A stretch of 32,000 nt of DNA, taken from the NCBI RefSeq assembly GCF_000260965.1, contig NC_017856.1:1470001-1502000 (forward strand), written 5' to 3'. The DNA comes from Methylophaga frappieri (GTDB lineage Bacteria > Pseudomonadota > Gammaproteobacteria > Nitrosococcales > Methylophagaceae). The translations under genes and the position numbers were made by a program. Below the pieces are notes generated by a model. That model was not told the origin of the DNA. It did not search any database and saw only the letters and a program-made list of their open reading frames with translations. The stretch's first letter is position 1; every line of letters begins with the position of its first letter. Shown piece after piece: positions 19,927 through 25,901 of this stretch.

Positions 19927-20908
19927 TTATTTCTCTTTTAAATCCAGTAACTCAAGTGGGCTGACCACACCTTGCGCCCCCTGTTTCAGCACATGCGTAT
20001 AAATTTCGGTTGTTTTTACATCCGCATGTCCAAGTTGCTGCTGTACTGTCCGAATATCTGCACCTGATTGCAACAAATGGGTGGCAAAAGAATGACGCAA
20101 AGTATGGCCTGGTTACCTGCTTCGTAATGCCTGCGTGTTGCGCTGCAGTTTTAATCGCTTTATTCAAACCGCTTTCGTCAAAATGATGCCGTCGAATTTT
20201 ACCAGAACGTGGATCTACCGATAATTTTGAAGCAGGAAACAAATACTGCCACCCCAATTCAAAAGGCTGACCTGGATATTTTCTTGCTAACGCATCAGGC
20301 ATCCAGACACCATCATAATCATCATTTTTAGAATCCAGCTTTAACAGCCTTTCAACACGTTCAATTTCTAATTTCAACGGTTGGTGAAGCTTACCAGCCA
20401 AGGTAACAATCCTGTTTTTTGCCCCTTTACCATCCCATACATGAATTTGACTTAAATCAAATTCAATATCTTTTACCCGCAACCTGACAAGCTCCATCCG
20501 CCTTAAGCCGGAGCCATACAACAGAGAAATCATCAGTTTTTTGACACCCGAAGTCTGCTTGATCAAATCAGCAGTTTCATTAACCGTTAAGACAACAGGC
20601 AACTTTTTCTTACGAGTTGATTTTTTAAAGGCACCCACATACCCAACGTCCTGCTCCAAAAACCTGCGCTTTAAAAATACAAGGGCATTTAAGGCTATCG
20701 ACTGCGTTGCGGCCGACACATTTCGCTTTACAGCAAGGTACGTTAAAAACTTCTCTATATGGTCATCACCCAACTCCCTCGGGTGTTGCTTATCATTAAA
20801 GACTATGAAATATTTAATCCAATACAAATATGTGTCGACCGTTCTGCGACTATAACGCCTGGTCAACATAAAGGACTCAACAGAACCTAAAAATGCAGAT
20901 TTTTTCAT
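19927..20908 (-). pseudogene. intI: integron integrase gene disrupted by a 1-nt frameshift
   Basis: The N-terminal 260+ aa are typical IntI, including the integron-specific extra segment ALARKYPGQPFELGWQYLFPAS and RRHHFDE. After ..ITKQVT (about 20107-20116) the frame is lost. The next frame, from CAT at 20104-20106 to TAA at 19927-19929, encodes [52 protein letters not shown], which holds box II and the catalytic Tyr. Confidence 0.85.
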
Positions 20909-21028
20909 GCGAATTGTCTCTTCCTTGAAACATTAGCTGGTTAAAACATAGCAAAATACTGGCCTTTTAACTCTTAAAATAAAACATTTAACGCCGACTA
21001 AACAATAACTTACATAACACAAAAAGAG

Positions 21029-21094
21029 AATTATAAGGAAGCCCGTTTAATATTTGTTATAAGGCCGCCGGCCTTATAAAACACACTGTTAAGT
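21029..21094 (+). other. candidate attI recombination site
   Basis: GTTAAGT (21088-21094) fits GTTRRRY and lies 7 nt before the first cassette ATG. CCTTATAAAAC-ACACT-GTTAAGT resembles the attI1 L/R arrangement (CCCTAAAAC-AAA-GTTAGGC). TTATAAGG is present three times (21031, 21057, and inverted at 21072-21079), two of these forming a 23-bp perfect palindrome at 21057-21079. Confidence 0.5.
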
Positions 21095-21100
21095 TTACCC

Positions 21101-21565
21101 ATGAATCAGAGCCACGGAATAGAAGCAGATTATTACCTCTATGGAATAGAGCTGGGAATACTTCAATTTGAAGAGGCTATCGCTTGGGCAGATAAAATCA
21201 TCGAATCGGAAGATTTGCCTTCTGGTGAAATCATTGAAGTCGCATTAGGTAGGCCCAGAGGTCGCAATGGAGTTATGGAATCTCTGAAAGAGGTTTTAGG
21301 TGAAAGAAATCTGCAAGTTTCTGGGGCAATGTTACTTTCTGAACTGAGTAATAGGCTCGCGCAGGGAGAGAGTGTCCGATCAGTAGCACGAAAAGCATTG
21401 GATGTTGCGTAGATTACTCAGCTCCCAGAAGAAGTCCGTTGGGAGTTTGATCAAATAGATGATGAACTGTCGCTTGCTGAGCAAGGAATTTATGGTGACG
21501 TTGAGCAATGTAAATCCGAGTTAATAAATTCACTATCTAGGCACAAATGTCGTGAAAAAACTTAA
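21101..21565 (+). pseudogene. cassette 1 hypothetical protein interrupted by an in-frame amber codon
   Basis: The 103-aa ORF stops at TAG 21410-21412. The same frame then stays open for 50 more codons (ITQLPEEVRWEFDQIDDELSLAEQGIYGDVEQCKSELINSLSRHKCREKT) and ends at the TAA inside the attC R'' box (21563-21565), as other cassette ORFs do. Confidence 0.55.
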
Positions 21566-21649
21566 CAAAGCCAAGCACAATCGCCCAATGCAAAAAGCCG
21601 CATTGGGCTGGACCTCGCTGACGCTCGGCCTGTGTTGGCGGCGTTATCT
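21560..21649 (+). repeat. attC site 1
   Basis: R'' ACTTAAC (21560-21566), R' GTTATCT (21643-21649). L''/L' pairing GCCAA(G)CACA / TGTGTTGGC with an extrahelical base, and a central palindrome CCCAATGC..GCATTGGG. Confidence 0.85.
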
Positions 21650-21667
21650 GTAAGAACACGATGAACC

Positions 21668-22573
21668 ATGATCAAAAGTAAGCCAGAACCAAAAGACTTT
21701 GAAAAACAAAGTGTTCAGTACTTAATTCAAGCACTTGATCTCATTAGGTCAAATGAAGAAAACTTTGAATTTATTGAAGATTGCGATGTTAGAAAAGAAG
21801 ACTACTGGGAATATCATCAAGGGATACTAAACAATTCATTAACGCTACTTTTTTTAAGCTTGGAAAATTATTTAAAAAAAGAGATATGTAGAGTTTCACC
21901 ATTACTTCTTTTGGCAGGCGAACCCAAAAAATGGGGTTCAGCTAAAGAAAGTAAAAAGTTTAGTGAGTTATTTATTCACCAATTTGATGATCTTTTGGTG
22001 TTATATCAAGAGCTAGGACTTGGAGAGCTAACACCACAAACAAAGACCAAATTAGAAGACCTTAGAATAAAGCGGAATCAGATTACACACGGAGTAACTG
22101 AAGGGATCTTGACTCCCAACTATGTCATAGAGACGTTTTACACTGTTGCTGTCCATATTTGGGGGCCGAGAAAATGGTGGGATCAACTCAAAAATCATGT
22201 GTTTAATGAACCATTATTTGGCATATATGATAGTGACCACGAAAAGGCAAGTGTAACGACATATGTTGAGTTTTTGGTGTCCTATTTGGGCAAGGCGAAA
22301 TCTGGTGAGATGCTTGGTGTCAACTTAAAACAAAGAAATTACTATTGCCCATCGTGCCATTACTGGCTTAACCATGAGTATGATGTAACTGATTCAAATT
22401 ACGCTATTTTAAGTCCCAATACTCCAACATCTAAAAATCTATACTGTGTGGTTTGCGACCAAAATTATGAGGTGGAGCGGGAAAATTGCCAGGTGCCTGA
22501 CTGTAAAGGCAACGTAATTGGCGGTGACGGCTACTGCCTGACATGTTGGTCCGAGCAAGATGAAAACAGATAA
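21668..22573 (+). CDS. cassette 2: HEPN-motif protein with a C-terminal double zinc ribbon
   Basis: 301 aa. RNQITH (R-N-x3-H) at 22073-22090 in a helical N-terminal region. The C-terminus has four Cys pairs, CPSC, CVVC, CQVPDC and CLTC (22346-22546). Stop TAA equals the R'' TAA. Confidence 0.6.
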   Translation: MIKSKPEPKDFEKQSVQYLIQALDLIRSNEENFEFIEDCDVRKEDYWEYHQGILNNSLTLLFLSLENYLKKEICRVSPLLLLAGEPKKWGSAKESKKFSELFIHQFDDLLVLYQELGLGELTPQTKTKLEDLRIKRNQITHGVTEGILTPNYVIETFYTVAVHIWGPRKWWDQLKNHVFNEPLFGIYDSDHEKASVTTYVEFLVSYLGKAKSGEMLGVNLKQRNYYCPSCHYWLNHEYDVTDSNYAILSPNTPTSKNLYCVVCDQNYEVERENCQVPDCKGNVIGGDGYCLTCWSEQDENR

Positions 22574-22642
22574 CAAAGCAATCAACTACGCGCCTGCGGC
22601 GCCGGACGCTCGTACCTCGCGCCGGTTATTGCGGCGTTAGGT
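22568..22642 (+). repeat. attC site 2
   Basis: R'' ..ATAAC (TAAC at 22571-22574), R' GTTAGGT (22636-22642). The arms TAACAAAGCAAT(C)AAC / GGTTATTGCGGCGTTA are complementary. Confidence 0.8.
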
Positions 22643-22654
22643 ACCCCTACAATC

Positions 22655-23473
22655 ATGAAACGATACCGAGTATTAGCTTTTAGTTTCGATACGCGAGCTC
22701 GTTTACTTGCGACGGAAATTCAGGATTCTTGGGAGTCGCAAGTAAAGTCGCAATGGATGGAGAACAAGCGAAAAATCCGTGAAGGTCTTGTGCACGAGTT
22801 TGGAGCCCAAAATCACGAAGAGAAAATAGAGAACTTTATAGAGCTCGGAGCAAGCCCTTTATCACTCCTGGCATTTCATAACGCATTCTTAGGGCAATGC
22901 CGAAAATCCTTCGTCGTAGGCTCCTACTATTCCGCCTTGGTATCAGCTTGCACTTTGGGTGAGCGTATCTTGAACCGGCTCATCATTCATCTACGCGAAT
23001 ACTTCAGATCGACGACCGAATACAAAAAAATTTATCGTAAAGAGTCATTCGATAACTGGGAGTATGCGATTGGAACCTTAGAGTCATGGGAGGTGCTACT
23101 TCCGGCGGCTGCCGAAGATCTACGTCAGCTTGGAGGAATCCGACACCAAGCCGTCCACTTCAACCCGGAGACTGACCAAAATGCTCGAGAACTCGCAATC
23201 GAAGCAATTCATTTGCTTCAGAATATTGTTGAGAAGCAGTTTTCGGCGTTTGGGTCACAGCCGTGGTATATCGAGGGCGCTCGAGGAGCGGCTTACGTCG
23301 CAAAACAATATGAAGATTTTCCATTCGTAAAGGAAGTAGTCATTCCAAACTGTGTGTTAGTTGGCCCCCACCATAAGCTTGAGCATGGCTCAAACGGCTG
23401 GATTGTGCACGATGAGGATAATTACGAAGACAAAGAAATCACGGATGACGAGTTTTTATCATTGCTACGTTGA
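22655..23473 (+). CDS. cassette 3: HEPN-motif hypothetical protein
   Basis: 272 aa. RHQAVH (R-x4-H) at 23141-23158 within LRQLGGIRHQAVHFNPE, preceded by a helical segment ..ACTLGERILNRLIIHL... The overall layout is HEPN-like (DUF4145/Abi style). Confidence 0.5.
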   Translation: MKRYRVLAFSFDTRARLLATEIQDSWESQVKSQWMENKRKIREGLVHEFGAQNHEEKIENFIELGASPLSLLAFHNAFLGQCRKSFVVGSYYSALVSACTLGERILNRLIIHLREYFRSTTEYKKIYRKESFDNWEYAIGTLESWEVLLPAAAEDLRQLGGIRHQAVHFNPETDQNARELAIEAIHLLQNIVEKQFSAFGSQPWYIEGARGAAYVAKQYEDFPFVKEVVIPNCVLVGPHHKLEHGSNGWIVHDEDNYEDKEITDDEFLSLLR

Positions 23474-24356: not shown

Positions 24357-25154
24357 ATGAACGTAGATGGTGATGGATTCTTAACCGAGCAGGCAGATCA
24401 GCGCGCGGAATCGGCCATTCAGCCGCACTTGGCTGTGTTCGAAAGGTTGAATGAAATATTGGCGTTGATTCGAGCTTTTATAAAAGCTCACTCCGTTCCT
24501 GTTCAAGAGTCGGAAACCGATCACCAGCGAATTATCGCGCTGGTGTTGGCGACGAGGATTCTGGAGATATCAGAAGCGGGAATTCTTATCATGCGCAAAG
24601 GCATGACTAATGAATCAATGACGATGCTCAGAGTGTTTCTGGACGCGTATTTTGTGTTTGGGAACGTATGCACGAACCCTGGTTTTGTTAAGGAATATTT
24701 TCAAACCGATCTTAGAGCTAGACTCAAACTGATGAATGTATCGCAGCAGCATTCATCAACACTTTTTGCATCAGCTAGAGCCTATGCGGATCAGGAAAAG
24801 GACAACTTAAAAAGCACTGTTGATTCTGAAGGGGCAAAGGCATTCAAAAGTGAAGAATATGCAAAGAATATCGGGTGCAGCGAGATATACGATAGCCTAT
24901 ATAGGTTAACCAGTCCCTCCTTGCATACAACACCGAGATCCCTTGAGAAATATACTCAAGAAGATGACGCTGGAAACATCACTGACTTAGTTGATGGGCC
25001 GCAACCTGGCGATATTGGGCAGCACGCGTATGACTTTGCGCACTTTTTGATCAATGTCTTAGGTGGGCTTCGAGATGTTTTTGGTGAAACTGACAGCGAA
25101 AATCAAGATGAGCTGAAGGACAAGTTGAATGCCTCGGTCAACAAAATCTCATAA
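24357..25154 (+). CDS. cassette 5: hypothetical protein, possibly AbiV/DUF5677-like
   Basis: 265 aa with an AGGAAA RBS. YDSLYRLTSPSLHTTP (R183..H190, nt 24903-24926) resembles the Y..LS...H signature I associate with DUF5677/AbiV-type proteins; not verified. Stop TAA equals the R'' TAA. Confidence 0.45.
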   Translation: MNVDGDGFLTEQADQRAESAIQPHLAVFERLNEILALIRAFIKAHSVPVQESETDHQRIIALVLATRILEISEAGILIMRKGMTNESMTMLRVFLDAYFVFGNVCTNPGFVKEYFQTDLRARLKLMNVSQQHSSTLFASARAYADQEKDNLKSTVDSEGAKAFKSEEYAKNIGCSEIYDSLYRLTSPSLHTTPRSLEKYTQEDDAGNITDLVDGPQPGDIGQHAYDFAHFLINVLGGLRDVFGETDSENQDELKDKLNASVNKIS

Positions 25155-25243: not shown

Positions 25244-25549
25244 CTATGTCCCACGTTTGATATCACGGTAGAAATTTTCATGGGAGCCAAGCGCCATTAA
25301 TTCCAAAATCAACTGTCCTTCGTCAAAACTATATCCGAGCAAGGTCAGCTGTTTGTTCATCTTGAATTTATGTACACGCAAAAAAGCTAGGTCGCCTTTC
25401 TTCTGCTCCCCAAGTTTTGGGTCTTTCATCAGTGCTTTAATAGCTGTATCCAAATCCTTTTTTTGGTTTGGCTTCAACTTTTTCACCACCTTTTTAAACG
25501 TAGGTGTTTGTAATACACTAACGACCTTAGCCAAAGTCGTATTCCTCAA
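25244..25549 (-). CDS. type II toxin, RelE/ParE family (reverse-oriented cassette 6)
   Basis: About 100 aa. ..TPTFKKVVKKLKPNQKKDLDTAIKALMKDPKLGEQKKGDL...LILELMALGSHENFYRDIKR is a typical RelE/ParE pattern. The start is uncertain: the track start at 25549 is a TTG that overlaps the antitoxin 3' end. Confidence 0.75.
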   Translation of the reverse strand: MRNTTLAKVVSVLQTPTFKKVVKKLKPNQKKDLDTAIKALMKDPKLGEQKKGDLAFLRVHKFKMNKQLTLLGYSFDEGQLILELMALGSHENFYRDIKRGT

Positions 25550-25748
25550 GCTTTCCAGCCTCTTTTTCCGCCTTGGCTATGATCGCCTGCTTAACAAATT
25601 CATATGGCAAATCTGGGTTATCTTCCATCATTTCGCCAATTTTCGCCCAGTGCTCAATCTGCTTAGGCGGAGTTCTATTCAAGGCTTTTGCCATAATCGT
25701 GGCTTTATCAATCAGGTCTTGGTCTAATCGTATGCTTGTTGTAGCCAT
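25527..25748 (-). CDS. type II antitoxin, ParD-like family
   Basis: ATG at 25748 with a GGAGGA RBS; 73 aa. ..RTPPKQIEHWAKIGEMMEDNP resembles the conserved QIEHWA..G block of ParD-like (PaaA2-type) antitoxins. It lies upstream of, and overlaps, the toxin gene. Confidence 0.7.
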   Translation of the reverse strand: MATTSIRLDQDLIDKATIMAKALNRTPPKQIEHWAKIGEMMEDNPDLPYEFVKQAIIAKAEKEAGKLEEYDFG

Positions 25749-25810
25749 GGTCACATCCTCCGCAAGTCGGCATATTGCGGAATGTAGCATAATGCCACAA
25801 ATGGGGCAAG

Positions 25811-25901
25811 TTGTAACAAGGTGTTGTTGTCGCAGCGCAAAAGGCCGCGCTGCTGGGACGCCTTCGCTGGCGCTCCGGCGCCCCAAAACACGGCGTTATG
25901 T
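25811..25901 (+). repeat. attC site 6
   Basis: TAAC at 25814-25817, R' GTTATGT (25895-25901). The arms TAACAAGGTGTT(G)TTG / CAAAACACGGCGTTA are complementary. Confidence 0.8.

Follow-up and report, generated by a model that had tools for sequence, protein, structure and literature searches.

Recent work has revealed chromosomal integrons as reservoirs of compact anti-phage genes, most of their cassettes being still unannotated, and the integron array within the 32,000-nucleotide stretch of Methylophaga frappieri DNA analysed here (contig NC_017856.1, positions 1,470,001 to 1,502,000 of the forward strand; hereafter the window, with positions counted from its first letter) raises the question of which function its second cassette confers. 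This cassette, referred to as cassette 2, encodes one protein of 301 residues (21668..22573, + strand, ATG start), which combines a HEPN-like domain with a double Cys4 module predicted to bind zinc. Taking its sequence, its family and its genomic surroundings together, we lean, with somewhat better than even chances, towards the interpretation that this protein is a self-contained, phage-triggered abortive-infection ribonuclease (RNase).

The open reading frame (ORF) had been pointed out in a previous inspection of the DNA without database searches (the sequence-only reading); it is present as described, and the two peptides quoted at that time are found at residues 63–72 (SLENYLKKEI) and 131–142 (DLRIKRNQITHG). 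The ATG start is supported by M1, I2 and P6, which are near-invariant among homologs. Besides 34 close homologs retrieved by a word-indexed search, 666 family clusters, defined at 50% identity, were recovered at E ≤ 1e-3, and 246 of these at E ≤ 1e-30, when 1.84 billion cluster representatives were scanned exhaustively with a profile; the members are nearly all about 300 residues long and align end to end. As the close homologs and the cluster representatives alike carry it, this shared full-length architecture is far beyond chance, and the gene is clearly under selection. Conservation was derived from 172 aligned, diverse full-length sequences with a mean pairwise identity of about 28–38%, the zinc module being the more conserved part (38% vs 28% for the HEPN part) and variability being concentrated in the short segments 31–40, 191–200 and 231–240. 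For the genome scan, alignment A1 was used instead of the wide alignment A2, which was too diverse for this purpose. An AlphaFold2 model of the full-length protein built with the family alignment reached a pLDDT of 90 and a pTM of 0.86, and a second model covering residues 1–218 (pLDDT 89) agrees with it.

HEPN domains are defined by an Rx4-6H motif with a polar residue (N, D or H) directly after the arginine, located where helix 3 ends and the loop towards helix 4 begins, in a core which displays a conserved acidic residue in helix 2 and a variable insert between core helices (Anantharaman et al., 2013; PMC3710099). The N-terminal part of the cassette 2 protein (residues 1–216; 21668..22315, +) is all-helical according to the secondary structure of the models, as the sequence-only reading had proposed for this part, which extends in the model over about 216 residues rather than the 170 then given. 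Helix 1 (residues 8–36) and helix 2 (residues 51–76, with conserved E66, N67 and K70) are followed by an insert (residues 77–122), by helix 3 (residues 123–140, with conserved R133, R136 and N137), by H141 as the first loop residue after helix 3, and by helix 4 (residues 150–165), after which three further helices extend to residue 216. The codons of the sequence R136-N137-Q-I-T-H141 (22073..22090, +) were read directly; this Rx4H motif, with the polar N137 immediately behind the arginine, is situated at the C-terminal end of helix 3 in both models. R136, N137 and H141 are each 100% conserved and invariant in alignments A1, A2 and A4. In helix 2, the sequence E66-N67-x2-K70 (21863..21877, +) provides with E66 the predicted acidic residue near the HEPN active site, position 66 being 92% E and 7% D and K70 being 99% conserved, both invariant in the closer homolog set.

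No curated HEPN model reaches its gathering score with the cassette 2 protein. Individual family members, on the other hand, match HEPN models of Pfam below threshold (seven families, four of which recur in several members) and no other catalytic class; these matches span residues ~16–160 including the motif. HEPN_RiboL-PSP is matched by 14 members in a set of 32 and, at a best E of 1.6e-4, by 21 in a set of 117, and the scan of 117 members in addition gave Cthe2314 (7), MAE_28990 (3), Swt1 (3) and, more rarely, DUF4145 (2), DUF3644 (2), which overlaps the EC042_2821 HEPN family (PMC3710099), and Csm6_HEPN (1). The Foldseek comparison placed a HEPN toxin, 7ae6_A, on top for the N-domain model against the PDB, although as a weak match (E 0.5, probability 0.72, TM 0.31–0.40), and the full-length model matched 7ae8_C at E 4.6 (target-normalised TM 0.54); nothing was found at E ≤ 0.001 for the full-length model against the PDB and BFVD or for the N-domain model against the PDB. 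An hhalign comparison of the family profile with a Swt1-HEPN protein encoded next to a homolog on a Sphingomonas plasmid, for which a single sequence served as the template and which was uninformative for this reason, gave a probability of 0.04. As neither a curated model nor a fold match is significant, the assignment rests on motif, topology and sub-threshold matches, which in combination make the N-terminal domain a probable HEPN domain, in agreement with the sequence-only reading.

The predicted zinc module (residues 221–296; 22328..22555, +) contains eight Cys, 98–100% conserved and arranged in four pairs as previously noticed; of the spacers given at that time, x29 and x10 were right, and the last one comprises 10 and not 9 residues, so that the spacers between the pairs are 29, 10 and 10. 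C227/C230 with C260/C263 are proposed as zinc site 1 and C274/C279 with C290/C293 as zinc site 2. In the model, which displays beta strands at 246–248, 257–260, 265–268, 283–284, 289–290 and 295–296, C260/C263 and C290/C293 are positioned at hairpin turns and C227/C230 and C274/C279 in the preceding knuckles. This arrangement fits two tandem zinc ribbons, as had been suspected, and may alternatively represent a cross-braced arrangement of the Cys. Zinc binding by the eight Cys is thus a prediction from conservation and model geometry, matches to zinc-ribbon, CoiA_N and CHY families being weak only and the weak top Foldseek matches including the Pirh2 CHY zinc finger. R223, Y225, R271, G281, N282 and V283 are likewise conserved, and segment 231–240 is hypervariable. 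As the module is the better conserved half of the protein, its role may lie in contacting a conserved ligand, for instance a nucleic acid, or in assembly, with the variable patches giving specificity.

The same conservation pattern would suit a protein without a role in defence, that is, an RNA- or DNA-binding accessory protein, either an RNA-processing enzyme or a zinc-finger regulator, travelling as mobile cargo, in which the Rx4H motif serves substrate binding or housekeeping cleavage. That the zinc module, with R223, Y225 and R271, surpasses the catalytic domain in conservation would be expected if a conserved nucleic acid were its ligand, and some loci lack any defence neighbour; we nevertheless regard this explanation as improbable, as the family is distributed patchily and horizontally on integron cassettes, plasmids and islands across the four phyla and classes given below, defence genes are its repeated neighbours and no characterised housekeeping family is matched. 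Conditions that would have spoken against the sequence-only reading, namely homologs lacking the R/H pair or the Cys pairs or a match to a characterised non-defence family, were looked for; the homologs keep both sets of residues and no such family was found.

Cassette 2 proved to be a genuine integron cassette, the label it had been given beforehand, with an attC site on either side. It comprises 993 bp (21644..22636, +), with limits set by the R′ core of the attC site at each end, and holds a single gene. The upstream attC, which ends cassette 1 (21563..21648, +; R″ TAACAA, R′ GCGTTAT), was found by pattern scan; its R′ core GTTATCT (21643–21649, +) sets the cassette start at ~21644, and its bottom strand forms a hairpin with R′ paired to R″ in the computed fold (z = −2.97). 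Another attC of the array, at 26601–26688, shares 95% identity with it, and the resemblance of both sites to the attC behind the Thalassolituus homolog suggests that the window either derives from a related marine genome of Oceanospirillales type or draws on a cassette pool in common with one. In the downstream attC (22571..22641, +; R″ ATAACAA, R′ core GTTAGGT at 22636–22642), the R and L boxes are pairable by direct reading (TAAC/GTTA, GCAAT/ATTGC, 3-nt unpaired spacer), the minimum-energy fold having picked a different pairing (z = −0.87). The stop codon TAA (22571–22573) is itself part of the R″ of this site. A copy in Thalassolituus sp. LLYu03 shows 86% nucleotide similarity from 21643, in the R′ core, to 22579, in R″; as this similarity stops at the cassette borders, the cassette is a mobile unit, and, being one promoterless gene between two attC sites, it can be moved by the integron integrase.

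With 906 of its 993 bp taken up by the ORF, the cassette cannot accommodate a partner or a second gene, and this bears on another candidate function, an addiction or stress-dormancy toxin. It would act as a low-level or stress-induced growth inhibitor without a phage trigger, and would serve either to keep the cassette array or mobile element stable or to send stressed cells into dormancy. Such a role was proposed for integron-borne HEPN domains (Anantharaman et al., 2013; PMC3710099), and toxin–antitoxin cassettes are common in such arrays, with a ParDE-like one in the window and VapBC and BrnTA genes beside homologs. In contrast, an antitoxin would not fit into the one-gene cassette, and the loci have no conserved neighbour in common; selection would act against a free-standing toxin without an inhibitor, and yet this large family has kept its catalytic residues. 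In addition, the conserved zinc module, being fused to the HEPN-like domain, speaks for an activation that is regulated. Given that there is neither a second ORF nor a neighbour conserved between loci, we rank a toxin–antitoxin function below defence and consider it unlikely.

The family carriers include Vibrio, Pseudoalteromonas, Methylophaga, Legionella, Sphingomonas plasmids and Verrucomicrobiota, and its taxa are the Gammaproteobacteria, Alphaproteobacteria, Verrucomicrobiota and Chloroflexota, in a patchy pattern of horizontal transfer. All named homologs are annotated as 'hypothetical protein'. IMG/VR contigs and GenBank phages hold no relative, and a phage-encoded or anti-defence origin is therefore set aside. 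A survey of the genomic context of homologs, covering approximately 17 distinct loci, showed the association with integrons and defence islands for which such a survey had been suggested, the gene being a single-gene integron cassette at about 8 of the 17. It is flanked by attC on both sides in the window, in Pseudomaricurvus albidus (L003/L006), on a marine metagenome scaffold (L004), in another Methylophaga locus (L007), in the superintegron of Vibrio floridensis (L008; Vibrio cholerae repeat (VCR)-type repeats on both sides, intI 2 kb upstream) and on an uncultured Pseudomonadales contig (L011). The Thalassolituus copy (L005) has a canonical attC behind it and, ahead of it, no more than a GTTATCT core, which may be attI; in Vibrio parahaemolyticus (L017), the attC evidence is partial, consisting of an R′-like end upstream, and the neighbours are a TIR protein and an OLD-like nuclease.

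Other loci place the gene among defence or mobile-element genes. In Cellvibrio (L009), a complete Gabija pair (GajA/GajB) is located immediately downstream and an integrase upstream; Legionella bozemanae (L012) encodes an OLD-family nuclease next to the homolog, and metagenomic loci display a Dam methylase with a gene of unknown function and BrnT/BrnA (L016) or FRG, DUF4357 and AAA_13 proteins (L013). In Ca. Thiodiazotropha (L001), the gene lies in a P4-type integrase/AlpA/DUF927 island, and on the Sphingomonas plasmids NZ_CP013917.1 and NZ_CP037914.1 (L021, L022) it is accompanied by VapBC, a DEAD/DEAH helicase, the Swt1-HEPN protein and an AAA and UvrD pair. Between the integrase and the homolog of the Cellvibrio metagenome-assembled genome (MAG), three ORFs of 698, 900 and 180 residues (L009 4362–9663), none of which has a Pfam or PADLOC match, may form an uncharacterised multi-gene defence system.

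Long variants of about 415 residues, making up about 8 of the top 150 representatives, possess an extra C-terminal segment of about 110 residues, for which no Pfam match was found. On both Sphingomonas plasmids such a variant is followed by an overlapping tyrosine recombinase gene (L021 7001–9297, L022 7001–9327). This arrangement, together with the integrases near the gene in Ca. Thiodiazotropha and Cellvibrio, could suggest that the protein assists site-specific recombination or the biology of mobile elements as an accessory factor which works with tyrosine recombinases, for example by binding or processing nucleic acid during integration or excision. Such a role appears very improbable to us, considering that the gene is passive cargo in integron cassettes, at varied array positions and far from intI, that many loci lack a nearby recombinase and that the link is confined to the extended sub-variant; HEPN domains are not known to act as recombination cofactors.

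The homologs at L010 10001–10994, in a Caldilineaceae MAG, and L011 8175–9028 align as two pieces in different frames and are likely pseudogenes or assembly errors; a 167-residue fragment, P0033, originates from the same 4-Mb Caldilineaceae contig as the former.

How would such a protein act? Active-site function is assigned in our proposal to R136, N137 and H141, with E66 and K70 of helix 2 nearby, and the site would be complete only upon pairing of two HEPN domains, as in other HEPN enzymes. The C-terminal module would bind two zinc ions via its eight Cys and keep the enzyme inactive until its trigger, a phage-made protein assembly or a nucleic acid, is engaged. Activation would reposition the HEPN domains, upon which messenger, transfer or ribosomal RNA would be cut and translation would stop, so that arrest or death of the infected cell would precede the release of phage progeny. 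HEPN chemistry predicts that such cleavage is metal-independent and yields a 2′,3′-cyclic phosphate. RNase activity, dimer-dependent activation, a phage trigger and a defence phenotype are thus what we infer for the protein, and its role as an immune effector is suggested by the validated single-gene HEPN cassettes of Vibrio integrons and by the precedent of RAZR (PD-T7-4), a zinc-finger RNase activated by rings.

In favour of a phage-triggered abortive-infection RNase, catalytic-type residues are kept in the 172 sequences although these share only about 28% pairwise identity in the HEPN part; single-gene cassettes without room for an antitoxin are found in the window and at no fewer than six other loci; the non-integron neighbours include Gabija, OLD nucleases, TIR, restriction–modification and toxin–antitoxin genes; the integron of the window has TIR and ParDE-like cassettes as well; and the family is absent from phage collections. 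Several observations weigh against it. All HEPN models score below their curated cut-offs, and the best fold match has an E value of 0.5. Pairwise identity is higher in the zinc module than in the HEPN domain (38% vs 28%), a pattern which argues against a fast-evolving sensor of phage proteins and favours a structural role or a ligand that is itself conserved. L015 and L019 have no defence neighbours, the context sample of about 17 distinct loci is small and without statistical control, and co-location is suggestive only, as integrons and defence islands hold toxins and other cargo too.

The closest characterised analogue is RAZR, in which an N-terminal Cys4 zinc ribbon binds ring-shaped phage proteins, ring binding arranges C-terminal HEPN domains into an active, non-specific nuclease for single-stranded RNA, and the zinc finger, as the most variable region, sets phage specificity (Zhang et al., Nature 2026; PMC13017515). 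The cassette 2 protein is, by prediction, likewise a single polypeptide that joins Cys4 zinc ribbon and divergent HEPN RNase; RAZR is a stand-alone abortive-infection gene without a partner, the catalytic Arg and His of which are needed for defence, and PD-T7-4 is also frequent in chromosomal integron cassettes. The differences are, however, considerable. In RAZR the zinc finger precedes the HEPN domain, whereas the HEPN part (residues 1–216) precedes the zinc module (residues 221–296) here; RAZR possesses one Cys4 site, the cassette 2 protein two; and the RAZR HEPN domain is of the DUF4145 type with R146…H154, in contrast to the Rx4H motif of cassette 2. DUF4145 finds no match in the window protein and is matched by 2 of 117 members only, at E ≥ 0.03, the sub-threshold matches of the family favouring the RiboL-PSP, Cthe2314, MAE_28990 and Swt1 types. 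While the zinc finger is the most variable region of RAZR, the zinc module is the better conserved half of the present family. Single-protein searches of Pfam, NCBIfam, PADLOC and PDB sequences yielded nothing at threshold, and no PADLOC family matches the protein at E ≤ 1, version 2.0.0 of this database presumably including a PD-T7-4 model. Given the reversed domain order, the second zinc site, the other HEPN subgroup and the lack of a PADLOC match, we consider the cassette 2 protein an analogue and not a member of RAZR. The statement of the sequence-only reading that the architecture is not a named defence system holds in so far as neither PADLOC nor the literature searched describes it, with RAZR/PD-T7-4 as its characterised analogue. 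A match of the family profile to a perforin in the PDB (E 1.2) was dismissed as spurious.

The contrasting conservation patterns leave room for a more specific, and doubtful, proposal, in which the family would be a widespread group of single-gene immune RNases that has escaped recognition, and the conserved C-terminal double zinc module gates the HEPN domain not as a fast-evolving sensor but by recognising a conserved infection-associated structure. This could be a form of RNA or DNA or a conserved phage assembly, a logic unlike that of the variable zinc finger of RAZR, and the plasmid variants of about 415 residues, which are translationally coupled to tyrosine recombinases, might then constitute a second functional offshoot.

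Compact HEPN genes of integrons offer a second set of precedents for a phage-triggered abortive-infection RNase. Esos and Taranis are anti-phage single-gene HEPN cassettes of the Vibrio cholerae superintegron (Darracq et al., preprint, 10.1101/2024.07.02.601686), and the AbiU2-like HNPBCG_15845 is an anti-phage single-gene HEPN cassette as well (10.64898/2026.03.17.712381). Like cassette 2, they are one-gene promoterless integron cassettes of marine Gammaproteobacteria with HEPN-type domains, and they halt growth of, or kill, the infected cell. Taranis matches Abi_C/AbiJ and HNPBCG_15845 matches AbiU2, whereas the cassette 2 protein matches none of those Pfam families; Esos is described without a zinc module, in contrast to the conserved double zinc module present here. 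As judged indirectly from this description, and with no V. cholerae protein among the named homologs, identity of Esos and the cassette 2 protein is unlikely. Integron cassettes with a compact HEPN abortive-infection gene are consequently a known kind of system, and the locus has the organisation of an integron gene cassette, one ORF between attC sites in an array next to intI; the architecture and family of the cassette 2 protein are without description in the databases and literature searched.

An integron cassette HEPN family represented by PDB 3jrt shares with the cassette 2 protein an intact Rx4-6H motif and the location in gammaproteobacterial integron cassettes (PMC3710099), but is described without a zinc module. 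Neither phmmer nor the family profile gave a relevant match to 3jrt against all PDB chains at E ≤ 10, and the entry is not among the 50 Foldseek matches listed for each model (E ≤ 5.1 and ≤ 3.6). The HepT/MntA type VII toxin–antitoxin system (PDB 7ae6/7ae8, 5yep) provides the best, though weak, structural match to the N-terminal domain and would share with it the Rx4H RNase chemistry and the dimeric composite active site, both of which are predictions for the cassette 2 protein. HepT, however, has about 140 residues and is neutralised by an adjacent MNT nucleotidyltransferase, whereas the domain described here, at about 216 residues, is enlarged by an insert and additional helices and is joined to predicted zinc ribbons in one polypeptide. 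As no MNT nucleotidyltransferase gene is located in cassette 2 or beside any homolog locus examined, cassette 2 is not a module of the HepT/MntA type. The commonest sub-threshold matches, covering helix 3 and the Rx4H motif, concern the RiboL-PSP-HEPN/Abi2 (AbiD/AbiF)/Swt1 group (PF18735, PF18731), of which the Abi2-type proteins are stand-alone abortive-infection genes (PMC3710099). The best family scores of 17–20 bits stand against curated cut-offs of 27–28, neither an L-PSP fusion nor a ParB operon is found here, and the double zinc module is specific to the present family.

Were the protein indeed a phage-triggered RNase, it would add a new sensor–effector layout to the HEPN immune toolkit and offer a natural comparison for RAZR, as the building blocks are the same two, arranged in reverse and with the opposite conservation pattern. 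The large family to which it belongs has no name in any domain or defence database, and a family profile would improve the annotation of integron cassettes as well as of defence islands. As a small (301 residues), partner-free protein with clear catalytic and zinc-ligand residues, it makes the hypothesis directly testable.

The array in which cassette 2 occupies the second position contains at least nine attC sites downstream of intI (R″ TAAC(A/G)A, R′ G(C/T)GTTA). The integron integrase gene intI (19927..20908, −), recognised by Phage_int_SAM_4 and Phage_integrase Pfam matches, shares 44% identity with the intI found next to the homolog of Vibrio floridensis and is apparently frameshifted near 20090–20100, the N-terminal 283 residues being encoded by the ORF 19952–20908 and the catalytic C-terminus (RHSFATHLL…, EIYTHV) by a second frame in the ORF 19927–20100. 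This is either a pseudogene, the array then being immobile, or a sequencing error. The cassette array is anchored by intI, and the attI/Pc region is assigned to 20909–21100. No Pc promoter was located for the array, the promoter and terminator scan remaining at background level, and Rfam revealed no RNA family in the window; cassette 2 lies downstream of the usual Pc position and is presumably expressed.

The integron of the window also contains TIR, DUF5677 and ParDE-like cassettes. Cassette 1 (21101–21560) holds an ORF of 103 residues (21101–21412) without a family match, and about 150 nt separate its stop codon from the attC. Cassette 3 (22655–23473, +) encodes a protein of 272 residues with an R-H-x3-H motif of its own (GGIRHQAVHF) in a helical context, for which Pfam, NCBIfam and PADLOC gave no match and BLASTP found no similarity to the cassette 2 protein, so that kinship of the two was rejected; it may be a second, unrelated HEPN-like cassette. 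Further downstream, the cassette at 24357–25154 (+) encodes a DUF5677 protein (E 6e-25) of a family of unknown function. The cassette at 25244–25886 (−), in reverse orientation with two ORFs, shows 70–75% nucleotide identity to a ParE-like/ParD-like region of the marine metagenome scaffold L004 and to an unannotated stretch of the Methylophaga locus L007, and is probably an array-stabilising toxin–antitoxin cassette. A protein of 290 residues with a TIR_2 domain (E 4e-31) is encoded by the cassette at 27463–28335 (+), TIR being a typical NAD-degrading defence effector domain. The attC sites at ~21563–21648 and 26601–26688 are, moreover, 90–93% identical to the attC which follows the Thalassolituus homolog (L005 10904–10993).

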